The position numbers and the translations under genes are program-made. The notes beneath the pieces are model-generated. The model made no database searches. It saw nothing but the letters and a program-made list of their open reading frames with translations, and was not told the origin of the DNA. From an uncultured virus (IMG/VR IMGVR_UViG_3300025010_000041) (lineage: Duplodnaviria; Heunggongvirae; Uroviricota; Caudoviricetes), in the IMG/VR virus record IMGVR_UViG_3300025010_000041: DNA of 32,908 bases; one strand, written 5' to 3'. Positions within the stretch are counted from its first letter, which is position 1. Each line of letters starts with the position of its first letter. Shown here one piece after another: positions 7,794-28,297 of this stretch.

Positions 7794-8345
7794 ATGACAA
7801 AAGCAAGCGACCTATCCCACGCATTCGGCTTTTTGAAGCAGGCAGAAGTATCTCTGCTGACCCGCCTGGCCGAAAGCCTACCCGACGGAGCCGTGTTTAT
7901 CAACGTTGGAGCCGGAGTGGGCACGTCTGCTCTGACCGTAGCCGAAGCGCGGCCCGATGTGAAGATTTACACCGTTGATATTTCCGAGGGCGGGCCGGAG
8001 GGCGGGCTTGAGAACGAGCGCAACGCATTCACTCACGCCGGACTGTCGGAAAGTCTACCAACGCAAGTATTGGGCGATTCGCGGGCAGTCGGTAGAGACT
8101 GGCAGTTCGAGAGCGCCGACCTGCTGATGATTGACGCCGATCATGCCTACGCTTCTTGCCGCGGCGACCTGGAAGTCTGGACGCCACACCTGAAAGCGGG
8201 CGGCGTGCTGCTGATCCATGACTACGAACCGAAAATATGGCCCGACGTGTTCAAAGCGACGGGCGATTTTATCCGCTCCCAGCCTGAAAGTTGGGAGTTT
8301 ATCGAAGTGCAACATACGCTGATTGCGTATAGGAGTAAGTCATGA
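7794..8345 (+). CDS. class I SAM-dependent methyltransferase (Methyltransf_24-like)
   Basis: INVGAGVGTS motif I, YTVD, GDS, DLLMIDADH, LKAGGVLLIHDY. Confidence 0.88.
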   Translation: MTKASDLSHAFGFLKQAEVSLLTRLAESLPDGAVFINVGAGVGTSALTVAEARPDVKIYTVDISEGGPEGGLENERNAFTHAGLSESLPTQVLGDSRAVGRDWQFESADLLMIDADHAYASCRGDLEVWTPHLKAGGVLLIHDYEPKIWPDVFKATGDFIRSQPESWEFIEVQHTLIAYRSKS

Positions 8346-9013
8346 AAATTCTAAAAACTGAGGGTGACGTAAAGCTGCCCGCCTCTGCTTATCTGGTAGT
8401 TGAGGATGCCGAAAAGCCGTCCACCTGGCACTTGCGCATTGGCGGCGAATCGGGCCTTCCTGACCCCGCTCACATGGGCGCAGCCTGGGCAGCACTGCAC
8501 GAGGGATACCGCGGCGAGAAGTACGCAGGCCCGCAAAAAGAGGAGGCCCTGGCGAAGTTGAAGAAACTCTACGCCGCGCTGAAACGCGACACCCCCGATG
8601 TTGAGAAGAAAGAGTATGACGGGTCATGGAGCGAACTCACCTGGAAAGAAGCGCCCTCGTTTGGTGAATGGCTGATCCGCTCCAAAGAAGATGCTCCGGT
8701 TGAACCAAACGAAGCCGTTGATCCCAAAGCCCTGCACTTACGCGTGGGACGGGCGCTGGCAAAGTTTGGCTTGAAGCCCTCGAAAGCCATTGACACCGGC
8801 GAACACGCCGAGGCGCACGGGTCGGCCTGGGTTGCACCCAAAACCGACTTCGAGAAGATCAAAACCGGCTTGTGGGACTTGGGTTATCGGCCCAAAGGCA
8901 AAGGCAAGTATTTCCGCGGCCCGGTCATGATCGAAACCGGACAGGACGCCGAGAACCTGTACCTGTATATCACAGACGACAACGGCCCTGCCCAAAAGAA
9001 GGCGGCGGCATGA
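8342..9013 (+). CDS. hypothetical two-domain protein
   Basis: 223-aa ORF with ATGA overlaps at both ends; the N-terminal PASAYLVV..PSTWHL..GAAWAAL..GYRG domain resembles modules I associate with phage head proteins, function unknown. Confidence 0.65.
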   Translation: MKILKTEGDVKLPASAYLVVEDAEKPSTWHLRIGGESGLPDPAHMGAAWAALHEGYRGEKYAGPQKEEALAKLKKLYAALKRDTPDVEKKEYDGSWSELTWKEAPSFGEWLIRSKEDAPVEPNEAVDPKALHLRVGRALAKFGLKPSKAIDTGEHAEAHGSAWVAPKTDFEKIKTGLWDLGYRPKGKGKYFRGPVMIETGQDAENLYLYITDDNGPAQKKAAA

Positions 9014-9636
9014 GTGTCTCGCGCAAACAGCAGGCGCTAAAGCGACGTCTTGCGATTGCGTTTGGCGCGCCACTGCTGCCCGATGAAATGCCAACTACGC
9101 CCCCGGTCAAAGCGAGGGCATTGGCGGCGGCGTTCGGCTACCTCTTTCCAGAGGAAGTCACGCTGCTGTCTGTCCTGGCCGAAAGCCTGCCCGCCGGAGC
9201 CGTGTTTGTCAACATTGGAGCGGGGTCTGGAACGAGTTCGCTTTGCGTGACAGAAACCAATCCGGCAGTGAAAGCCTACACAGTAGATATTTCTGACGGT
9301 GGCCCATTTGGCGGACTGGAAAACGAGCGCAACGCCTTCGCTGAAACCGGACTGCCGCTGCCGTCACAAATTTTAGGCGACTCGCACGCCGCGGGTAAAC
9401 TGTGGATCGGCGGCAAAGTAGACATGCTATTTGTGGACGCCGACCACAGCTTCGAGGGGTGCAACGGTGATATTGAGGCGTGGCACCCGCACGTTGTGGC
9501 GGGCGGGATCATTGTCTTTCATGATTACGAACGAGACTTCTGGCCCGAAGTGAAACAGGCCGTAGACGCCGCGGCTGAGCGGTATGGTTGGGAGTTGATT
9601 GAACAGCGCGGCACCATGATCGCATTCAGGAAGTGA
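9010..9636 (+). CDS. class I SAM-dependent methyltransferase, paralog of 7794..8345
   Basis: ATGA-coupled start 9010; VNIGAGSGTS, YTVDISDGGPFGGLENERNAF (nearly identical to paralog), FVDADH, GGIIVFHDY. Confidence 0.88.
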   Translation: MSVSRKQQALKRRLAIAFGAPLLPDEMPTTPPVKARALAAAFGYLFPEEVTLLSVLAESLPAGAVFVNIGAGSGTSSLCVTETNPAVKAYTVDISDGGPFGGLENERNAFAETGLPLPSQILGDSHAAGKLWIGGKVDMLFVDADHSFEGCNGDIEAWHPHVVAGGIIVFHDYERDFWPEVKQAVDAAAERYGWELIEQRGTMIAFRK

Positions 9637-16551: not shown

Positions 16552-16896
16552 ATGACCCTGCAAGAATTTACCGCCCGTTATGCCCGCAAGTTTATTTTTG
16601 AACACCTCTGCCCGTGGGGGCCGCTCTTTCACAAGATTTTGACCCCCGACCAGACCTGGGCCTGCTTCTGCCTGGGCGACGGGTTTGGCAAAATGATTCC
16701 CGACCAATTGGCGCAGATCAACTCCGGCTATGACTGGAGCCACGTGCGAGACTCCAGCGACCAGGCGGCAACGGAAATCGCCGCAAAGATCGTGGAGTTA
16801 GGACATTGGGCGCTGCCGATTGACCGGATAGCGAAGAAAACTTACAACCAACTCAACCGGCAGGGACTTGACCCGGCCACCTTGTTTCAGAACTAA
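16552..16896 (+). CDS. hypothetical protein
   Basis: AGAGGA RBS, first gene after the promoter, 114 aa. Confidence 0.75.
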   Translation: MTLQEFTARYARKFIFEHLCPWGPLFHKILTPDQTWACFCLGDGFGKMIPDQLAQINSGYDWSHVRDSSDQAATEIAAKIVELGHWALPIDRIAKKTYNQLNRQGLDPATLFQN

Positions 16897-16909
16897 GAGG
16901 ACTAATACC

Positions 16910-17326
16910 ACGCGATGCCCAGACTGTAGCAAATTTGTTTCCCACGATCACGCCGTAGAATGGTCGGAAGAACCCGACGAAAACTGCGAAACAGGCACAA
17001 TCACCATGCGCCTGGAATGCGCCGAATGCGGCAGCGAATTGGCGACTTACGAATCCGAAGCAACCGTTGAAGTTGACGGCGAGTTTGATATCACCGCTCA
17101 CCAGGGCGAAGGCCACGAATTGACCGTTTCCTGGGACGAACCGAACCCCGAAGATCGTTATCAGGATAAAGACCGGCACGGCAAGCCGATCAAGAATTTC
17201 CGCTACATGAAGCACTTGTACTATGCCACCGCAACCGGCAAAGTCGAATGCTCTTGCGGCGCAGAAGCCGACTTGACTGCCACCACCGACGAGGCAAGCG
17301 GGTCTGATTTTGACCTGTCATACTAA
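16910..17326 (+). CDS. acidic Cys-rich (zinc-ribbon-like) hypothetical protein; start uncertain
   Basis: CPDC, CAEC and CSC motifs; the AGAGG RBS at 16896-16900 is followed by in-frame ACG 16910 rather than ATG; alternative TTG 16868. Confidence 0.65.
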   Translation, partial: TRCPDCSKFVSHDHAVEWSEEPDENCETGTITMRLECAECGSELATYESEATVEVDGEFDITAHQGEGHELTVSWDEPNPEDRYQDKDRHGKPIKNFRYMKHLYYATATGKVECSCGAEADLTATTDEASGSDFDLSY

Positions 17327-19446: not shown

Positions 19447-19577
19447 ATCGGCGGCGATAGAAACAGTTACTTCGGCTGTTAACCGGGTTGTTGCAGGTTC
19501 GAGTCCTGTCAGAACGGGAAACCGTTTTGTAGCTCAATTGGTAGAGCACCTACGTTCTGTTTCGCATGTTCCCCGAT
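19447..19577 (+). ncRNA. Y RNA-like 3, YrlA-type with permuted tRNA domain
   Basis: ATCGGCGGCGA / TTCCCCGAT closing stem; GAAACAG/CTGTTTC; T arm GCAGG-TTCGAGT-CCTGT precedes acceptor stem CAGAACGG-GAAA-CCGTTTTG and D arm GCTC-AATTGGTA-GAGC. Confidence 0.88.
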
Positions 19578-19591
19578 GAATGCAATCAAAG

Positions 19592-19627
19592 AAGCCTGGG
19601 GTTTGTCTCTCAGGCTTTTATTTTTTT
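19592..19627 (+). terminator. intrinsic terminator after Y RNA cluster
   Basis: AAGCCTG ... CAGGCTT stem followed by TTATTTTTTT. Confidence 0.8.
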
Positions 19628-19644
19628 AGACAGTGGAGGCACAA

Positions 19645-21069
19645 ATGTCAAGTACGAATGTCAAACGACCTGATACCCGTTTCTCAAATGATCGGCTGGC
19701 CGGCGGATACGGCGCGCTGGCGGCCACGCAAGACTCTCTGGCGCTCTTGCGCCGGGCGGTTCTCGCCAATCTGTTGTGGGAAAATATCGCCTACGAGGAC
19801 GGCGAGTCTGTAGTGGCGAATATCACCCGGCTTGTGCCGCTGTGCAAGCCCGAAGATGTGGCGACCCTGGCAATCGAGGCCCGCACCCAGCAGAAGTTGC
19901 GCCACGTGCCGTTGTTCCTGGCGCTGCAAATGGCCGAACACAAAACCCACCTGCCGCTTGTCGGGAGTCTGTTACCGAAGATTTGTCTGCGGCCCGATGA
20001 TCTGACTGAGTTCGTTGCGCTCTACTGGAAAGAGAAAAAGCGCCCGCTGGCAAAGCAGATCAAGATCGGCCTGGCGGCGGCTTTCCAGAAGTTTGACGCT
20101 TACCAGTTGGGCAAGTACAAAGCCGATGGCAAGACCGTCTCTCTGCGCGACGTGATGTTCCTGGTTCACCCGACCCCTGCGAACGACGCTCAGGCGGGAG
20201 TCTGGAAACAGTTTGCCGATCAGACTCTACCCGCTCCCGATACCTGGGAAGTGGCGCTCTCCACCGGCAAAGACAAGAAAGCCACCTGGGAGCGTCTGAT
20301 TTTGGAAAACAAGTTAGGCGGCTTGGCGTTCCTGCGCAACTTGAAGAACATGCAAGCGGCGGGAGTTTCTCGCACGACTCTGGCGCATGGGTTTACTCAT
20401 GTCAAAACCGGCTGGCTCTTACCGCTGGACTTTTTGAAGGCAGTCAAAATGGCTCCCGAATATGTGCGCGAGATCGAAACTATGATGCTGAATACGCTTC
20501 GGAATATGCCCAAGCTGACCGGGCGCACGATCATGGTGGTGGACGTTTCCGGCTCTATGGCGAGTAAGATTTCAGAGAAAAGCGATTTTACTCGCATGGA
20601 CGCGGCCCTGGCAATGGCGATGTTAGCCGCCGAAGTCTGCGAATCGGTTGCAATTTACGCCACCGCCGGCAGTGATAGAGACCGCCAGCACAACACGGCG
20701 AAAGTTTCCGCCTATCACGGTTTTGGGTTGATCGAGTCCATTATGGGCGTTGGGAAGCAATTGGGCGGCGGCGGTATCTTTACTCGCCAGTGCCTGGAAT
20801 ATATCAAAGAGCAAGAGAAAGAGACCCCAGACCGGGTTATTATTTTCTCCGACTCTCAGGACTGCGATTTCCCTGATAAGCGCACGCCGCGCCCGATTGG
20901 TGAGCGCAACTATATCTGTGACGTTTCAGCCAATGCGCACGGGGTCGCTTACAAGAGCGTTTGGTCGGCTGAGATTTCGGGCTTTAGCGAACACTTCCTG
21001 AGCTTCATCATGGCCCTGGAGGGCTTGCGGGTAGAAGTTGGAGCAGACGACGAATTGCAAACTCAATAG
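19645..21069 (+). CDS. Ro60/Rsr-like TROVE + vWA domain RNA-binding protein
   Basis: GGAGG RBS before ATG 19645; TROVE motifs LRHVP, RPDDLTE, FDAYQLGKY, LRDVMFLVHP, PDTWE, AFLRNL; vWA MIDAS VDVSGSM, GGGIF, IIFSDSQ. Confidence 0.92.
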   Translation: MSSTNVKRPDTRFSNDRLAGGYGALAATQDSLALLRRAVLANLLWENIAYEDGESVVANITRLVPLCKPEDVATLAIEARTQQKLRHVPLFLALQMAEHKTHLPLVGSLLPKICLRPDDLTEFVALYWKEKKRPLAKQIKIGLAAAFQKFDAYQLGKYKADGKTVSLRDVMFLVHPTPANDAQAGVWKQFADQTLPAPDTWEVALSTGKDKKATWERLILENKLGGLAFLRNLKNMQAAGVSRTTLAHGFTHVKTGWLLPLDFLKAVKMAPEYVREIETMMLNTLRNMPKLTGRTIMVVDVSGSMASKISEKSDFTRMDAALAMAMLAAEVCESVAIYATAGSDRDRQHNTAKVSAYHGFGLIESIMGVGKQLGGGGIFTRQCLEYIKEQEKETPDRVIIFSDSQDCDFPDKRTPRPIGERNYICDVSANAHGVAYKSVWSAEISGFSEHFLSFIMALEGLRVEVGADDELQTQ

Positions 21070-21082
21070 TTTTTCAAAACGG

Positions 21083-21118
21083 AAAGAGCGGGTCAGAATC
21101 AATCTGGCTCGCTCTTTT
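21083..21118 (+). terminator. intrinsic terminator after TROVE gene
   Basis: AAAGAGCGGGTCAGA / TCTGGCTCGCTCTTT stem ending in a T run. Confidence 0.7.
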
Positions 21119-21237
21119 GTATACGCTAATCAACCTTTTTGTGACATTCTCCTTAATACAATATGTATTAAGTAAAGTGCATAAAAACATTTTACTATAC
21201 GAAAGAAAAGCGGCGATTTTCGCCAGAAATGGGGAAT

Positions 21238-21330
21238 TGTGGTATACTAATATTGTCGAAGTGCAGTTCGGCACATGGTATAATCAACCCGTCCCCGCTA
21301 ATCTGCTGCACACAGATTAGCGGGGATTTT
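21238..21330 (+). promoter_or_regulatory. tandem extended -10 promoters and 14-bp leader hairpin of the Cas7-like gene
   Basis: TGTGGTATACT 21238-21248, TGGTATAAT 21276-21284, perfect stem TCCCCGCTAATCTG/CAGATTAGCGGGGA 21292-21326 followed by TTTT. Confidence 0.65.
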
Positions 21331-21349
21331 CGTAACTTAGGAGGTTCGC

Positions 21350-21925
21350 ATGTATGTCGTTTCAATCACGGTTAAGGGCGTTTGTCCGTTACTTCAAAAC
21401 CGCTTCCCCATGCCAGAGTTCGGAGACCTGAGCAAGGGCGGCAAGAAGTCAACCGGCTCTCCTGACTATTCGCAAGAATGGCGCAGCCACCTGTACGCGG
21501 CTGGTGGAAAGATTTACCAGCCGTCCAGCCACTTCGAGGGCGCGATTATCAAAGCCGGGGCCAGCTTCAAAATCCAGGGCAAGCGCGGCAAAACTTATCG
21601 CGACTTACTCGCCGCGTCTATCATCATTGATCCCGAACAGATTCCCCACAATATGGACGTTCCCGAAGAACTGGATGCTGACGCCGACAAGCCGCTTTAT
21701 CTGGACGTGCGCCCGGTGGTTATTCAGCGGGCGCGCATTGTGCGCGTGCGCCCGGCGTTCAAGGCGGGTTGGGAATTGTCTTTCGAGATCGCGGTCGGTG
21801 ACGACGAAATCCAGCCCGACTTACTCCAGGACATTCTGGCAATGGCAGGAAAAAGCATTGGTATTGGCGACTTTCGCCCACGGTTTGGCCGCTTCAATGT
21901 GATTAACTTCGCGGTTCACAAATAA
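21350..21925 (+). CDS. stand-alone Cas7/RAMP-like RNA-binding protein
   Basis: AGGAGG RBS; RAMP layout: N-terminal strand ITVKGVCPLL, IYQPSSHFEGAI (equivalent to YIPGSSxKG), RP..W.LSFEI strand, C-terminal Gly-rich loop GIGDFRPRFGRF; no other cas genes in the window. Confidence 0.75.
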   Translation: MYVVSITVKGVCPLLQNRFPMPEFGDLSKGGKKSTGSPDYSQEWRSHLYAAGGKIYQPSSHFEGAIIKAGASFKIQGKRGKTYRDLLAASIIIDPEQIPHNMDVPEELDADADKPLYLDVRPVVIQRARIVRVRPAFKAGWELSFEIAVGDDEIQPDLLQDILAMAGKSIGIGDFRPRFGRFNVINFAVHK

Positions 21926-22035
21926 CTTTGTGGCGAGGGCAAGGTCAGGTCAGGAACGGCGCGGTCTGGCGTGGCGCGGTCTGGTCTGGCACGGATCGGC
22001 CCGGCACGGTAAGGTATGGCACGGTATGGATTTTT
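21926..22035 (+). repeat. GG(Y/A)-NN pentamer array 1 (putative guide RNA)
   Basis: Leader CTTTGTGGCGAG, then 19 GGH triplets in exact 5-nt phase (21938-22030) separated by 18 variable dinucleotides, ending GGTATGGA-TTTTT. Confidence 0.9.
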
Positions 22036-22135
22036 CTTTGCGGAGCGGGCAAGGTAAGCCGTGGCACGGTAGGGTGAGGCGAGGCATGGCGTGGTACGGT
22101 CAGGTAAGGTAAGGTATGGTATGGCTAACTTTTTT
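22036..22135 (+). repeat. GG(Y)-NN pentamer array 2 (putative guide RNA)
   Basis: Leader CTTTGCGGAGCG, then 16 triplets (15 GGY, one GCC) in 5-nt phase (22048-22125) with 15 variable dinucleotides, ending GGTATGGC then a T run. Confidence 0.9.
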
Positions 22136-22411
22136 GAGTTAGAAAACTTTCCGGGGGTGAAATTTCCCTGGTTTTCTCGTATGAGTCTTAGCGCCTGGAT
22201 ACCGCTTAAGCAATATGTTTATCTGCGCGACGGTGGCAAATGTCGCTATTGCGAAAAACCTACACTCTACGAGGAAACTCACTGTCACCACGTTTTAGAG
22301 TTATCAGAGGGGGGCACTAACCATCCCTCGAATCTAAAGACGCTTTGCAAAACGTGTCATAAAAAGCGCCACCCGTTTATGCTATCAGTGAGGGACAAAC
22401 TAAAAAAATAA
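22121..22411 (+). CDS. HNH endonuclease
   Basis: RDGGKCRYC ... HCHHVLELSEGGTNHPSNLKTLCKTCHKKRH; likely start ATG 22121 in the last unit of array 2. Confidence 0.92.
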   Translation: MANFFELENFPGVKFPWFSRMSLSAWIPLKQYVYLRDGGKCRYCEKPTLYEETHCHHVLELSEGGTNHPSNLKTLCKTCHKKRHPFMLSVRDKLKK

Positions 22412-22497
22412 TGCTATAATACAAGTGTCGGGCCTACTGTAGAGTAGGCCAGTCACGCGGAAATTGACGCCCGTTGCGATAACGGACGTCTTTTTTT
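22412..22497 (+). promoter_or_regulatory. extended -10 promoter, structured leader and attenuator-like terminator of tail operon
   Basis: TGCTATAAT 22412-22420; GGCCTACT-GTAG-AGTAGGCC 22431-22450; CGCGGAAATTGACG 22456-22469; GACGCCCGTT/AACGGACGTC stem followed by T7. Confidence 0.7.
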
Positions 22498-22521
22498 GTT
22501 TACACACAAGGAAGGTTTGAA

Positions 22522-24060
22522 ATGACGAATAAAATCACGACCGACGAGATCGTCAGTCAGCGGCATAAACGGAATTTTCTCCAGTGGGGCGGCCCCTATC
22601 CCGGCAACCGCCTGACCTATGCCGGCGTAGACGGCCAGTATGCCGCGGTGGACGGCGTGACTGTCCCCGAAGCGGGCGGGATTGACCCGATCTGGGTGCC
22701 CAACCCGTTTGTCCCTGGGCGCTACCGCCTGGTAGGCCGCTCAATTACCCCGCCTGATCTGGCGTCTATGACTCTGATGCTGAAAGAAAAGCACCGCTTT
22801 ATCCCGAAGCAGTTGAAGCCGATCAAATGCCCGATCAACATTTACGAACCGACCGGCACCTGCAAGAACCCGTCCGACTTCTTGCGCGGCTGGTCGGATT
22901 ACGTGCTGATCTACTCCCTGGGCCTGGTCTCCGAAAAAGACTTGGGTACTCGCACCACCTGGGACAGTGACGATGCGATGGAAGATTCGCTCTCGTTGAC
23001 CCTGGTCTCGATCTACCCGATTGGCTCTCTGGCGTTCTGCCAGGAAGCGAGTTCGGAGATCGACCGGCAGGTGGTGGACGTGGTCTTTGGTTCGGTTGAG
23101 CAATGCTCAGGCTGCGGCGCTGAGGATGACGGCACAAAGCGGATTTACGCCGTCACCAAATCCAGCGGCGGCTCGCCCGGTTTGCCGTCCGAGATTGTCT
23201 ACTCGCTCGATGGCGGGTTGACCTGGTCTCAGGCCAATATCGACGGCATGACCGTTGCGGAAGATGCCCTGGCAATCGAAGTCGCCGGGCAGTATGTGAT
23301 TGTGATCGGCGCGGGCGCGGTCTACTACTCCGAGTTGAACGCAGAAACCGGCGTCCCCGGAACGTTCACCAAAGTCACTACCGGGATCGTTGATGCCGGC
23401 ACCCCCCGCGACCTGTATGTCGCTTCTCCGCGTGAAATCTGGATGTGCGGCGACGGCGGCTATGTCTACAAGTCAACCGACGTCACTGCCGGATTTACTG
23501 CCGTTCTGGACGGTGGCGTCTACACCGACGATCTGAAACGGATCAGCGGCGACGATGACGGCACGATTGTTGCTGTGGGCGCAAACGGGCAAATCCTGTA
23601 CTCGACCAATCGCGGCGCGACCTGGACGAGTTCGGCGACCACCCCGACTGCTGCCACCCTGCAAGCGATCAACGCCAAGTCCGACCGCCTGTGGTGGATC
23701 GGCACCGCCACCGGGCTGGTCTACTACACGCAAAATGGCGGCGCTTCCTGGTCGCAACTGACTTTCAGCGGATCGGGCACCGGTCAAATCTATGACATTG
23801 TGTCAGCCACCGAAGAAGTCATGTACATCGCCAAAGACGACGCCACCCCCACCGCTTCGATCCTGGCGAGTTGGAACGGCGGGCAGGACTGGACAACCAG
23901 CAGCCCCCGGATCGTAGGCTTACCGGTCTTTGACTCGCCCACCCGGCTGGCCGTTCCCGACGCCGAGCCCGGTACCGCCGCCAACACCCTGGCCGTGGGC
24001 GGGATCGCAGGCGACGCCACTGACGGCATTCTGCTGATCGCCGTCGCTGCCTCTCTGTAA
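22522..24060 (+). CDS. putative major tail (tube) protein with C-terminal BNR/Asp-box beta-propeller
   Basis: Directly upstream of chaperone and tape measure genes; capsid-like codon bias; Asp-boxes YSLDGGLTW, YSTNRGATW, YTQNGGASW, ASWNGGQDW. Confidence 0.7.
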   Translation: MTNKITTDEIVSQRHKRNFLQWGGPYPGNRLTYAGVDGQYAAVDGVTVPEAGGIDPIWVPNPFVPGRYRLVGRSITPPDLASMTLMLKEKHRFIPKQLKPIKCPINIYEPTGTCKNPSDFLRGWSDYVLIYSLGLVSEKDLGTRTTWDSDDAMEDSLSLTLVSIYPIGSLAFCQEASSEIDRQVVDVVFGSVEQCSGCGAEDDGTKRIYAVTKSSGGSPGLPSEIVYSLDGGLTWSQANIDGMTVAEDALAIEVAGQYVIVIGAGAVYYSELNAETGVPGTFTKVTTGIVDAGTPRDLYVASPREIWMCGDGGYVYKSTDVTAGFTAVLDGGVYTDDLKRISGDDDGTIVAVGANGQILYSTNRGATWTSSATTPTAATLQAINAKSDRLWWIGTATGLVYYTQNGGASWSQLTFSGSGTGQIYDIVSATEEVMYIAKDDATPTASILASWNGGQDWTTSSPRIVGLPVFDSPTRLAVPDAEPGTAANTLAVGGIAGDATDGILLIAVAASL

Positions 24061-24625: not shown

Positions 24626-24845
24626 GGGTCGCGATGTTTTCTCGATATCCACTGCCAGGAGCGGGGTCAGTTACGCTCCGATCCTGGAGTGGGTACTGGC
24701 GGCACGCTGGGCCGGTTATACCTATGAGCAGTTTGAGAAAATGGACGGTGACAGGCAGTCGTTCTATGTCGCCGCCAGACGCGCTGAGTTGCAAATAGAG
24801 GCCGTAATGACCAAAGAAGCGAACAAGAAGGCGAAACAGAAATGA
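24609..24845 (+). CDS. frameshift extension of tail assembly chaperone (lambda T-like; not in ORF track)
   Basis: +1 frame is open across the gap: FQVRFRGRDVF...LEWVLAARWAGYTYEQFEKMDGDRQSFYVAARR...KAKQK; its TGA overlaps the tape measure ATG; no start codon with RBS at its 5' end. Confidence 0.7.
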   Translation, partial: FQVRFRGRDVFSISTARSGVSYAPILEWVLAARWAGYTYEQFEKMDGDRQSFYVAARRAELQIEAVMTKEANKKAKQK

Positions 24846-27800
24846 GCGGAATGCCTCTTGCCGGCGTTCAACTGGTGGCGCAAGACTACGCGCCGTTTAT
24901 GGCTGCAATGCAAAATGCAACCAAAGCGGTCGAAGCGTTTGGCGCGGCGACCACCAACAGCGGCAAGACCGCTATGCCTGCGCTTGCCGACGGTGCGAAA
25001 AGCGCCGCCAGTGGTCTGGACGGGCTGAACGTCCAGAGTCTGATCGGCGCGAACGTGGTCGGAAATTTATTGACCGGGGCTATTACAACCGCCTGGGATA
25101 AACTAACCGGATTTATCACGGCTGCGGCGAGTGGAACAGAGGCTCTCCAGGACTTGACCATTAATCTGGAAACGCTGGCGGCTCGCGAAATCCTCTATTC
25201 CGGTGCAACCGACAACATGAGCGAAGCCCTCGAAATGGGGGCAAGCAACGCTGCCGGGATGTTCGAGGAACTGGAAAAACTCTCAATTGCCAGCCCGTTC
25301 CCCTACCAGTCGGTTGTCAGCGTCTTTCAAATGGGGATGCAGTTCGGCCAAACGTCTGAAATGGCGATGAAACTGACCGGGGCAATTACCGACCTGGCCG
25401 CGGTCAATAAGGGCATTCCCGGTATCATGCAGCGTCTGAGTTACAACTTTTCGCAAATGAGCATGACCGGAAAAATCATGGGCCGCGATATTCGCGACTT
25501 GGCAATGGCCGGCCTCGACCTCAACAAAGTACTTAAGTTGCAATTGGGCCAGACGGTCAAAGAGGTCAATGCCGACCTATCCTCTGGCAAAATAATCTTT
25601 GAGGATGTTGCACAGGCACTGGTAGATTACACGGATAAATACATTGGCCCGGCGGCCAAGCGCGCCAGCCGGACGCTCGGCGGTTTGAAGTCCACTTTTA
25701 TGGACGTTTCGTTCTTTGCTGGTAAAAACCTGTTTCTCCCGGCTGCAAACGCTTTGTCTGAGGCGCTGGGAACGATGCTTGACAAAGCCCTGATGGTGAC
25801 AAATTCAAAAGCGTTTACCAACATTGGACTCGCTCTCGAATATGCCACAAAGGCAATGCTGGGGCTGAACAACGTCCACCAGAAAGTATTCGCGGCGGGA
25901 GATAAAATCTGGCAGGAGTACGGCAGTGCGGCGGAAGCGGCTGCGGACGGAATTTATGCCACAGAAATAGAGATGAACGCCGCTCAACAAAAATCCATTG
26001 ACGATATGCTGAGCGGCTGGTTAGAGGGCGCGGCTAATGCGCTTGAGTGGGGCGTAAAAACAATGGTTCAGTTTGCAGACGGGCTGATTGAAGGCGCCGG
26101 GACCGCAATCAACGACGCGCTGGACTGGATCAACGGGCTTTTAGAGTGGTGGTTGGCTCCTGGTTCTCCCCCGCGGGTTGCCCCAGACATTGACTCTTGG
26201 GGCGCTTCAACGATCAACGAATGGCTCAAGGGCTTTACTGAGGCCGACTTTGACTTAGTGGACGCTATCTCGAAGCCGCTCAAAGCGGCGCTCTCTCTCG
26301 CCGCCGACATGGGCGCGATTGGCGAGGGCGATATCAATGCAATCCTCTCTGACATTATCAAGAGTGCCATTGCCGCCGCCTCTGGAGTTGGTGGCATAGA
26401 AGAAGTTTTAGCAAAAATCCGCGCCACCGCCGGCCCGTTTGCCAACGAAGTTGCCGACCTGGCCGAAAAGCAGTTTTATCTTGCCGAAGCATCGAAAGAA
26501 GTTACTTACTGGCAGAACGAGTTGAACGCTGCCCAACAGCGGGCATTTACCGCCGGAAAAGCGGTCTCGAAGGGCGTGCAGGAGTACAACGACCTGCTGC
26601 GCAACGGAGCAAGCAAAGAGGTACTCAAGGCGAAACTGGCAGAAATCAACGCCAACCGCGAGGCCCAAAAAATCGCTGTCGGCGAGGCTCGAACGGCAGA
26701 GGAAAACGCCAGGGTTGCCGGCGAGGGTATCGACACAATCAAAGAGCAAATCAGCCTGCAAAGTCAACTGATTGAGCAAATGACGGAACTGGCGCGCCTG
26801 CAAATTCTACCCGCCGAAACAGGAAAAGGCGGGGGTGGTGAAGGCGGGGCTGCGGGGGCGGGCGGCGGCGGGGCCAGCGGCGGTAGCACCGTCAACGAAA
26901 TGCTGGAGAAAATGCGGTTGCAAGTCGAGGAAAAAGCCGCTGCAATCTGGAAGCCCATCAAAGATAAGTGGGACGAATCTTGGGGGCCGATCTACACGAG
27001 TGTTGCAGAGAAACTAGGCACTTTATGGGATAACCTTGTCTTAATCGCCGGCGAGTTGTGGAACTTTGCGGGTCTGGTTGTTACCGCAATTCAGACCGGC
27101 GATTGGCTCCCGGTTCAAACAGCCGTCACCACGAAACTAACCGAAGTCTGGGCCGCAATGAAGATCGCCATGCTGCACTCCGACAATCCGGTAGTGAGCG
27201 GCCTCGCCCAATCTATCCTGACCGGGAACTGGGAGTTTTTTAGAGCAAATCTATTGAGCGCGATCAACAAAACGATAGGCGAAACCAAAGACCAATTAGT
27301 GACATTCCTGACTGCTACAGGAAATCCTATTGCAGTTGCGCTTGGGGCGGGCATTGCGACGGCAGACTGGAAGCCGTTCCAGGATGCGGTATCGGAAGAA
27401 GTGAATACCGCCGTTGAGGCCGCAGGGGAATCGGCAGTTGAGGTTCTTTGGAGCAATTTGACAAATGCCGAAACCTGGGGAAAAACAATCGGAACGGGTA
27501 CCGAAACATTCCTGGCTGTCGGCGCTGATATTGCGGCGGGCATTATCAACGGGTTATATGACGCGGTTATGAATCCGGAAAATCCAACCTGGCTAAAAGC
27601 CACGTCTGATTGGCTTGGCGCCATCAAGACCGCTCTATTCGCCAATATGGTAACTTTTGTGGCGGCGTTTGCGGGAGAATTGACCAACAAGTCTGCCGTC
27701 GAAATTCTCAAGTCATGGTCTGCGATATGGACAAACGCTGTAAACCTGGCGAAGTTTTTCACCTACTTCATTGGGCCGATTGGGTTATTCTTTGACGAAA

Positions 27801-28297
27801 ACTTCAAAGCCGCTGCACAGGGGATTGTTGACACAATCGTAGCGAAATTCAATGAGTTGATATACTCGAAAGACTCTCCGTTTGACGATATTGGACAAGG
27901 TATCGTCAAGGGAATTATCGCCGGGATTACAGCCACCGCCACCACCCTAGCCGAAGCGGCAATATCAGCGGCGAAAGGAGCGGTAGACGCAGTGCTGGAA
28001 TATCTCGGTATTAAGTCGCCCTCGAAACTGTTTATGGATATCGGCGCGAACGTCTCACTCGGCATGGGCAAAGGCATTGAACAGGCCGCCAACGAACCGG
28101 CGCAATCGGCCAATCAAATGGCTGCCGGAACCGTCAAAGCCGTGCGCCCCCCGTCTACCAGTCGCGTCCAGCCACCCGCGACCCGCGCCGGAGTCAGCGT
28201 CCAGATTGGTGACGTGTATATCTCGGACGCGCAAGAGGGACAAATGTTCGAGGCCAGAGTTGAGCGGGCCGTGATGAAAGCACTAGGAGCAGTCTAA
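24842..28297 (+). CDS. tape measure protein
   Basis: 1151 aa, Ala/Gly-rich helical; tape-measure motif (SPF.Y ... NFSQM..TGKIMGRDIRDL); C-terminal LGIKSPSKLFMDIG. Confidence 0.92.
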   Translation: MSGMPLAGVQLVAQDYAPFMAAMQNATKAVEAFGAATTNSGKTAMPALADGAKSAASGLDGLNVQSLIGANVVGNLLTGAITTAWDKLTGFITAAASGTEALQDLTINLETLAAREILYSGATDNMSEALEMGASNAAGMFEELEKLSIASPFPYQSVVSVFQMGMQFGQTSEMAMKLTGAITDLAAVNKGIPGIMQRLSYNFSQMSMTGKIMGRDIRDLAMAGLDLNKVLKLQLGQTVKEVNADLSSGKIIFEDVAQALVDYTDKYIGPAAKRASRTLGGLKSTFMDVSFFAGKNLFLPAANALSEALGTMLDKALMVTNSKAFTNIGLALEYATKAMLGLNNVHQKVFAAGDKIWQEYGSAAEAAADGIYATEIEMNAAQQKSIDDMLSGWLEGAANALEWGVKTMVQFADGLIEGAGTAINDALDWINGLLEWWLAPGSPPRVAPDIDSWGASTINEWLKGFTEADFDLVDAISKPLKAALSLAADMGAIGEGDINAILSDIIKSAIAAASGVGGIEEVLAKIRATAGPFANEVADLAEKQFYLAEASKEVTYWQNELNAAQQRAFTAGKAVSKGVQEYNDLLRNGASKEVLKAKLAEINANREAQKIAVGEARTAEENARVAGEGIDTIKEQISLQSQLIEQMTELARLQILPAETGKGGGGEGGAAGAGGGGASGGSTVNEMLEKMRLQVEEKAAAIWKPIKDKWDESWGPIYTSVAEKLGTLWDNLVLIAGELWNFAGLVVTAIQTGDWLPVQTAVTTKLTEVWAAMKIAMLHSDNPVVSGLAQSILTGNWEFFRANLLSAINKTIGETKDQLVTFLTATGNPIAVALGAGIATADWKPFQDAVSEEVNTAVEAAGESAVEVLWSNLTNAETWGKTIGTGTETFLAVGADIAAGIINGLYDAVMNPENPTWLKATSDWLGAIKTALFANMVTFVAAFAGELTNKSAVEILKSWSAIWTNAVNLAKFFTYFIGPIGLFFDENFKAAAQGIVDTIVAKFNELIYSKDSPFDDIGQGIVKGIIAGITATATTLAEAAISAAKGAVDAVLEYLGIKSPSKLFMDIGANVSLGMGKGIEQAANEPAQSANQMAAGTVKAVRPPSTSRVQPPATRAGVSVQIGDVYISDAQEGQMFEARVERAVMKALGAV

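Follow-up and report, generated by a model that had tools for sequence, protein, structure and literature searches.

A VIPR cassette with an adjoining HNH nuclease gene in an uncultured groundwater phage

Introduction

VIPR (Viral Interference Programmable Repeat) systems were described only very recently (10.64898/2026.04.26.720920), with two follow-up preprints (10.64898/2026.04.26.720927, 10.64898/2026.10.15.759431); going by the accessible parts of these texts, the silencing type II systems alone have so far been tested experimentally. Vipr is a stand-alone RAMP protein that binds RNAs (vrRNAs) built from 9-16 YNNGG repeats, with a single protomer on each repeat (10.64898/2026.04.26.720920). 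The GGY of each repeat is held by the protein and the NN pairs with double-stranded DNA, every third base being skipped, according to the available text of two of the preprints (10.64898/2026.04.26.720920, 10.64898/2026.04.26.720927). Binding of Vipr silences transcription, and the targets are mostly rival phages and satellites (10.64898/2026.04.26.720920). Of the seven VIPR types, types III-V have vipr-accessory (vap) genes that are predicted enzymes, and types III and V show enrichment within host defence islands and are described as host immunity (10.64898/2026.04.26.720920). VIPR arrays are also recovered by language-model entropy, as stated in the accessible part of a further preprint (10.64898/2026.10.21.760802). 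Here we analyse a 32,908-nucleotide stretch of an uncultured virus (IMG/VR record IMGVR_UViG_3300025010_000041), called the window below, and its locus at 21220..22497, which we explain as a VIPR cassette of an uncultured groundwater phage; to this explanation as a whole, including the targeting and the HNH nuclease discussed below, we assign a probability of about 0.88. The cassette is a member of the published VIPR family, so that the type of system is already in print and its known principle is unchanged.

The type II VIPR of Escherichia phage SUSP1 consists of Vipr, vap1 and four vrRNAs (10.64898/2026.04.26.720920). Like SUSP1, the window's cassette is phage-borne and free of cas genes, has a homologous Vipr with GGY/NN vrRNAs beside its gene, and has a predicted target in a coding region where the skipped base is the wobble base; the presumed targets are rival mobile elements. 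Unlike SUSP1, it has an HNH nuclease as its accessory protein instead of the DNA-binding Vap1, its vrRNAs have a 5' leader (yTTTGnGG..GGG) and a short GGTATGG tail where those of SUSP1 have a 3' pseudoknot tail, its arrays run to 16-19 pentamers against 9-16 in print, and its Vipr, at about 28% identity (computed with the homologue of phage wV8), has N17 in place of H17. The nuclease-bearing types III and V are alike in combining Vipr and vrRNA with a predicted HNH-type nuclease, as far as the accessible text goes. [quoted passage not shown]

Results

A stand-alone Vipr protein outside a CRISPR-Cas setting

Among sequences of solved structures, the 191-aa protein encoded by the first gene of the cassette (Table 1) had a sole match, 36pp_D, 'SUSP1 Vipr protein' (E 8.3e-11). 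In PHROGs it matched phrog_4652 (E 1.8e-18), whose function is not annotated, and no family was found for it in Pfam or PADLOC. The homologue from Felixounavirus wV8 aligned with it over its full length, with 28% identity in 194 columns. An AlphaFold2 model from 77 sequences had a mean pLDDT (predicted local distance difference test) of 93.4, and the top Foldseek matches of this model were type VII Cas7, Csm3 and Cmr4 (E about 2e-6, template modelling score 0.5-0.6). Judged from sequence and model together, the protein is a stand-alone RAMP of the Vipr family, with an RRM core, a G-loop (GIGDFRPRFGRF) and a thumb. At E<=1e-3 the family comprised 2446 representatives of 50% clusters.

The residues of SUSP1 Vipr that hold GGY are H17, R138, D177, W178 and R179, as given in the accessible part of the structural preprint (10.64898/2026.04.26.720927). 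R138 corresponds to R134 of the window protein, which was invariant in the 77 sequences, and D177 and R179 to D174 and R176, each at least 90% conserved there. W178 is replaced by F175, so that the position remains aromatic. The remaining position, H17, is considered with the target evidence below.

The setting is not that of CRISPR-Cas. None of the 32 open reading frames (ORFs) of the window matched a Cas family in PADLOC, apart from one weak match (E 5e-5) of a 152-aa ORF (16868..17326, +) to TniQ_IF, a protein of CRISPR-associated transposons. The Tandem Repeats Finder output for the window held no CRISPR-like repeat, a dedicated CRISPR finder not having been used. No CRISPR array, Cas5, Cas6 or large subunit/Cas10 was found in the 32.9 kb, and the locus does not classify as a class 1 effector. 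Rfam at the gathering threshold and a tRNA scan returned nothing in the window, and no hammerhead was seen between the vrRNAs.

These results bear on an initial annotation of the window, made from the sequence alone. Its reading of the gene as Cas7/RAMP-like was upheld by the Cas7/Csm3 matches of the model and by homology to SUSP1 Vipr, and the likeness to VIPR that it pointed out was confirmed by the match to 36pp_D and by the published preprints. Its statement that the window has no cas1/2/5/6 or CRISPR repeat agreed with these scans. Its label of a candidate non-CRISPR RNA-guided system is better replaced by membership of the VIPR family, which is already published.

Two GGY/NN arrays follow vipr

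The leader of vrRNA1 begins one base past the stop codon of vipr. All 19 pentamers of the first array begin with GG (GGC 8, GGT 8, GGA 3), as do 15/16 of the second (GGT 9, GGC 6), the remaining unit being GCC. The array criterion of the preprint is at least four YNNGG units, and the window has 19 and 16. No further array of at least six units was found in the 32,908 bases, in five phases and on both strands. The longest GG-phase run among 200 shuffled versions of the window was 7 units; shuffling the G-rich array region itself 2000 times gave a longest run of 8 units, with 23/2000 shuffles reaching 6. Tandem Repeats Finder picked up only parts of the arrays, with periods of 15, 10 and 5. Neither vrRNA folded better than its shuffles (z +0.49 for vrRNA1, -0.82 for vrRNA2), as expected of a guide that is displayed.

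The initial annotation had described two arrays in strict 5-nt phase directly after the vipr stop codon, and both were present where it had placed them. Its pattern of GG(C/T, rarely A) with variable dinucleotides held, and its NN lists agreed exactly with our recount; for the second array the units and dinucleotides were borne out, although the GCC unit had gone unmentioned. The shared leader was also found, CTTTGTGGCGAGGGCAAGGT (21926) and CTTTGCGGAGCGGGCAAGGT (22036) both conforming to the consensus given, as was the shared tail, GGTATGG and then a T run, which ends both arrays. The HNH gene does start in the last repeat, with its ATG at 22121 inside the final GGTATGG (PF01844, E 7.5e-12), and a promoter-like site, a consensus match only (9/12, with TG), lies ahead of vipr. 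The proposal that one protomer binds each repeat, sequestering GGY and displaying NN, coincides with what the accessible text of the cryo-EM preprint reports for SUSP1 (10.64898/2026.04.26.720927).

With an alignment of homologues as query, we fetched 119 related loci from viral and genome collections; a single-protein query retrieved one locus only. The downstream pentamer arrays that the initial annotation had expected of homologues were indeed present: 112/119 loci had at least one same-strand array of at least six units within 1.5 kb of vipr. Within this 1.5-kb zone we counted 350 arrays; the 446 kb lying farther away held 6, and 3 were on the opposite strand. By the same measure no array was found in seven loci (L014, L035, L077, L081, L098, L103, L109), and in L014 degenerate repeats were visible by eye. 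In the clade with HNH genes described below, the vrRNA leader is conserved as yTTTGnGG and then GGG.

These counts also bear on whether the arrays might be coding sequence, a G-rich DNA structure or protein-binding DNA repeats rather than guide RNAs. The sequence is G-rich, and ORFs of 49-60 aa traverse the arrays. However, in nearly all of the relatives vipr comes with arrays whose GG is conserved and whose NN is hypervariable, the 3 exceptions in strand aside; sibling alleles of the cassette differ in NN and retain the scaffold; and in SUSP1 and P. fulva such arrays have been shown to give transcripts that Vipr binds (10.64898/2026.04.26.720920). We regard a non-guide nature of the arrays as extremely improbable and treat them below as guide RNAs.

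An HNH nuclease gene linked to vipr

An HNH homologue lay directly downstream of vipr in 19/119 loci (L002-L014, L016, L082-L085, L107), whose Vipr proteins were 51-65% identical to that of the window, and also in two sibling contigs, L128 and L138. Other neighbours were not retained: a tblastn search of the 119 loci found the TROVE gene of the window in none and its 512-aa gene in L004/L005 only. The residues for catalysis and zinc, namely two CxxC pairs (CxxC, CxxCH), HH, N and the last H, were invariant in all 16 of the HNH proteins aligned. The HNH protein co-diverges with Vipr, at 43-64% identity. The vrRNA units sit between vipr and the HNH gene, and in many relatives another unit follows the HNH gene and ends in a hairpin terminator. 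In at least nine loci (the window, L128, L002, L003, L009, L010, L011, L012, L107) the start codon of the HNH gene is the ATG of the GGYATGG tail. Three AT-rich loci (L006, L008, L014) have an HNH frame without ATG, GTG or TTG ahead of the conserved N-terminal motif; a non-canonical start or a different mode of translation may be used there. On these sequence comparisons, the HNH gene is taken as the vap of this clade.

Prediction of a Vipr-HNH complex gave a score of 0.39, against 0.15 for the best control, with a run agreement of at least 34% and a partner pLDDT of at least 67. In calibration this mark was reached by 116/157 solved complexes and by 2/215 mismatched pairs; at scores of up to 0.60, however, it was reached by 18/157 solved complexes and by both of the mismatches, so that a pass of this kind is likelier to be wrong than right, unless the pairing was probable beforehand. 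The model thus lends weak support to a possible physical interaction of the two proteins.

Alternatively, VIPR might only silence, and the HNH protein might be a passenger, for example a homing endonuclease, or one for packaging, whose gene lies next to vipr by chance. Consistent with this, the characterised SUSP1 and P. fulva systems repress transcription without a nuclease (10.64898/2026.04.26.720920), the complex prediction is weak, and HNH genes are frequent mobile passengers in phages; the HNH protein of the window matched 34 PHROG families, including one with the annotation terminase small subunit. Against a passenger, the HNH gene keeps its place directly downstream of vipr in 19/119 loci of differing phage contexts, from which the TROVE and 512-aa genes are missing (the latter except in L004/L005), and its product co-diverges with Vipr. 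Its flanking by vrRNA units on both sides in relatives, its start codon built into the vrRNA tail and its invariant catalytic residues also speak against a passenger, and HNH is named among the Vap domains in the legend of Fig. S21, within the accessible part of the preprint (10.64898/2026.04.26.720920). A passenger HNH thus appears rather unlikely, and we prefer to see the nuclease as part of the VIPR cassette.

The predicted target of vrRNA2 lies in a neighbouring gene family

Targets were sought on both strands by the published 1-nt-skip rule, in which the NN dinucleotides are joined by one free base. Units 1-11 of vrRNA2 (AA AA GT AC AG GA GA AT GT AC CA), a length chosen post hoc, matched 19/22 positions at the start of the next gene, which encodes a 512-aa protein (Table 1). 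The next best place in the window scored 15/22, and none of 2000 shuffled guides reached 19 (maximum 18). The tape-measure gene (24842..28297) lies after the 512-aa gene. In the Protein Atlas the 512-aa protein scored 0.83-0.84 with viral PSII_BNR-like clusters, which is a lead only and gives no function. We collected 70 homologues of this protein, and their N-termini cluster around (L/I/V)TADEI(V/I)TQKHKR.

The sibling contigs L128 and L138 carry a different vrRNA2, which shares the core GT AC xx GA GA AT GT AC CA with that of the window. The sibling guide reads VTADEIVTQKHKR, the consensus N-terminus of the family (by codon V T A D/E D/E I/M V T H/Q K/N H/Q K/N R/S). Its best match in the window was the same site in the same register (20/26; 1/500 shuffles was as good), and in L121, a viral contig fetched only via its protein (52% identity), the homologous site was again the best (21/26). 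By hand count the sibling guide fits several homologues at 12/13 residues and the phage's own protein at 9/13. The window's own site has three mismatches to its guide, and each changes an amino acid, toward residues that the relatives lack. The closest relative of the 512-aa protein, P0272 (77% identity), has the N-terminus NKITSDEIVTQ, which fits the window's guide at 10/11 residues, against 8/11 for the own sequence NKITTDEIVSQ. These comparisons support, without proving, the reading that vrRNA2 targets the 512-aa gene of rival phages and spares the own copy.

Wider scans were made of viral and metagenome contigs. A 9-unit seed of vrRNA2 had one match in the viral contigs, antisense to a tail-fibre-like ORF, which did not extend and was judged to be chance; the seed of the sibling guide had none there. 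A relaxed vrRNA2 pattern gave 21 matches in metagenome contigs: 16 belonged to an unrelated conserved peptide motif, 3 were singletons and 2 were the siblings' own sites. None of the 21 was a better-matching homologue of the 512-aa gene. The 16 contigs (L123, L126, L127, L129-L137, L139-L142) encode the peptide AEANN(I/V)T(S/T)(E/D)(E/D)IVSQI(I/L)N at 18-21/22 to vrRNA2 units 1-11; the peptide is non-homologous to the 512-aa protein and probably a by-product of the relaxed pattern. In an all-against-all comparison of 212 ten-unit sub-guides of the HNH clade with 1.96 million positions, 27 matches reached at least 18/20, against 2 for shuffled guides. We do not rely on this excess, as 24/27 matches were circular, coming from loci fetched with those very patterns, and 2 were array-to-array; only the match of L128 to L121 stands. 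Of two seed scans with vrRNA1, one gave 5 matches (best 26/36, none of at least 80%) and the other none.

Several observations weigh against our explanation. The 11-unit guide omits the four tail units, because a tail of the GGTAAGGTATGG type recurs in relatives, and with all 15 units vrRNA2 scored 21/30 at the site, within the null range (maximum 23). The scans of viral and metagenome contigs found no perfect or better DNA target for the window's vrRNA2, and the comparison with P0272 was made at the protein level only. No target emerged for vrRNA1, whose window and collection scans stayed at chance level. In Vipr, position 17, which in SUSP1 contacts G1, is N in the window and H in more than 90% of close relatives. 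Types III and V are described as host-defence systems, whereas the cassette of the window and 14 relatives are on viral contigs, where they lie beside tail genes. Among the public runs that contain the stretch there was no RNA run. Finally, the identity of the guide to the phage's own gene (86% of NN) exceeds the 80% threshold that the preprint uses for targets (10.64898/2026.04.26.720920).

This last point would fit self-regulation, in which Vipr with vrRNA2 binds the phage's own tail-gene block and times late expression. The site lies in the first gene past the cassette terminator, and both sibling alleles retain a guide to it. On the other hand, the preprint found no self-targets of at least 80% in its sets (10.64898/2026.04.26.720920), the direction of the three amino-acid changes looks like escape, the sibling guide suits the family consensus better than the own gene, and a linked nuclease would make self-binding dangerous. 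We therefore consider self-regulation improbable, distinctly more so than a passenger HNH, and favour the targeting of rival copies.

Cassette alleles in otherwise identical phages

Over the 6 kb compared, the window and the sibling L128 were 100% identical at 19526..21225 and at 22406..23105. Between these, from about 21226 to 22205, they were 60-89% identical, and this part comprises the 5' hairpin, vipr, both vrRNAs and the start of the HNH gene. The Vipr proteins were 75% identical; L128 and L138 thus have a different vipr allele together with different guides. Both alleles occurred side by side in contigs of four public groundwater/soil runs, and in one same-run example an equally long contig diverged over 21832..22103. 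Diversification or exchange of the cassette under conflict would fit these data, either process being compatible with them.

One contig joint in run X13 (depth 4, 30 letters on the shorter side) connected 21248 to 22405, skipping 21249..22404. It may come from a cassette-less variant or be an assembly or repeat artefact between two similar promoters, and it was not used as evidence.

Proposed mechanism

By analogy with SUSP1, the repeats would be transcribed as vrRNAs of roughly 100 nt, and each pentamer would be bound by one Vipr protomer that sequesters GGY and displays NN. Reading along double-stranded DNA, the filament would pass over one base after each NN, and its binding would block transcription. 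vrRNA2 would be directed at the first codons of the 512-aa gene of rivals; since this gene heads the tail-gene block, blocking or cutting at that point would put the tail genes out of action. The three amino-acid-changing mismatches in the own copy may spare the carrier. The HNH nuclease may act as the effector: it would probably be drawn to targets once these are bound and would cut them, which would turn silencing into destruction. This is the least supported step of the scheme.

A more elaborate and tentative reading, to which we give clearly less than even odds, joins these elements into a nuclease-armed phage VIPR whose neighbour-gene guide hits rivals and spares self. The guide would owe its sequence to the first 11-13 codons of the gene adjoining the cassette, by copying or by tuning, and the 5' hairpin, vipr, guides and HNH start would be exchanged or would diversify together, as one unit, in phages that are otherwise identical. 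The ATG of the HNH gene lies with a Shine-Dalgarno-like AAGG within the vrRNA tail, and loading of Vipr onto the guide could gate the amount of nuclease.

Beyond the accessible text of the preprints, the window adds a phage-borne HNH clade with leader-type vrRNAs, a guide against a neighbouring gene family and an allele swap in identical backgrounds; the supplementary tables S1-S3 and data S1-S4 of the first preprint (10.64898/2026.04.26.720920) may already cover the clade. A clade with a phage-carried Vipr, leader-type vrRNAs and a 96-aa HNH protein could reveal whether VIPR destroys DNA as well as silencing it. The predicted target has a built-in contrast of self and non-self, with 19/22 at the own site and a better fit in relatives, and the natural pair of alleles in identical backgrounds is evidence for the cassette as a hot spot of phage-phage conflict.

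Promoters, hairpins and other features of the window

The features of the cassette and the adjoining gene are listed in Table 1.

Table 1. Coordinates of the cassette, its guides and its predicted target in the window.
Feature	Position	Strand	Description
Promoter-like TCGCCA-17-TATACT with TG	21220..21248	+	9/12 consensus matches only
Second promoter-like TGGTATAAT	21276..21284	+	Read from sequence, not returned by promoter scan; consensus match only
15-bp hairpin, then AUUUUCG	21291..21334	+	Between promoter and vipr ribosome-binding site GGAGG (21340..21344)
vipr	21350..21925	+	191-aa RAMP (Cas7-like); guide-RNA-binding subunit by homology to SUSP1 Vipr
vrRNA1	21926..22035	+	Leader CTTTGTGGCGAG; 19 GGY/NN units at 21938..22032; tail GGTATGG + T run
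vrRNA2	22036..22127	+	Leader CTTTGCGGAGCG; 16 units at 22048..22127; tail GGTAAGGTAAGGTATGGTATGG overlapping HNH start
HNH nuclease gene, candidate vap	22121..22411	+	96 aa; PF01844 E 7.5e-12; phrog_589 E 3.6e-16
Terminator-like hairpin + T run	22151..22179	+	Inside 5' part of HNH ORF
Promoter-like GGGACA-17-TATAAT with TG + two hairpins	22392..22497	+	10/12 matches
512-aa BNR/beta-propeller gene	22522..24060	+	Sortilin-Vps10 + PSII_BNR, E about 7e-9; phrog_8700; first of tail-gene block
vrRNA2 near-match	22528..22559	+	Codons 3-13 of the 512-aa gene; skipped base = wobble position

The hairpin ahead of vipr had a minimum free energy of -28.1 kcal/mol (z -4.7; 0/200 shuffles as stable), and its stem is retained in L128, with changes on both arms. 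It may be a 5' stabiliser or an attenuator. From its sequence, the hairpin within the HNH gene may end most vrRNA transcripts. It was seen in the window, L128, L003 and L012 and not in all 16 aligned loci; we dropped its conservation as an argument, as it is missing from some loci and confounded by Pro-Gly and Pro-Trp codons. Past the HNH gene, the second of the two hairpins has an intrinsic-terminator-like stem followed by U7 (terminator 22471..22485; z -3.97), and in relatives a further vrRNA occupies the equivalent position. The modules at 21276..21334 and 22392..22497 resemble each other, each combining a promoter-like -10 element that carries TG with a strong hairpin (z -4.7 and -4.0) and a run of U just ahead of a ribosome-binding site; one precedes vipr and the other the tail-gene block. 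These modules may act as attenuators or as promoters that depend on antitermination.

The window is a stretch of phage or prophage. All of its genes are on the + strand; besides the VIPR cassette, the 512-aa BNR protein and the tape-measure protein, they encode an RNA ligase-like protein, methyltransferases, a large glycosyltransferase and a TROVE/Ro60-like protein. The public runs that contain the stretch are groundwater and soil metagenomes. Two ORFs, 7794..8345 and 8872..9636 (both +), gave mad2-like methyltransferase matches in PADLOC. A sub-threshold Rfam match to the Y RNA-like YrlA (19486..19550, +; 40.3 bits against a gathering threshold of 69, E 1.1e-6) lies just upstream of the TROVE/Ro60-like gene, which has a vWA domain (19633..21069, +), and the two together look like a phage-borne Ro60/Y RNA pair. 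At 21124..21204, the contig word depth was 5-7 times that of the flanks in 4/4 runs, and loose ends were numerous at 21136, 21160 and 21187. This segment contains the palindrome CTTAATACA-TAT-GTATTAAG and is probably a short repeat element, present in several contexts.

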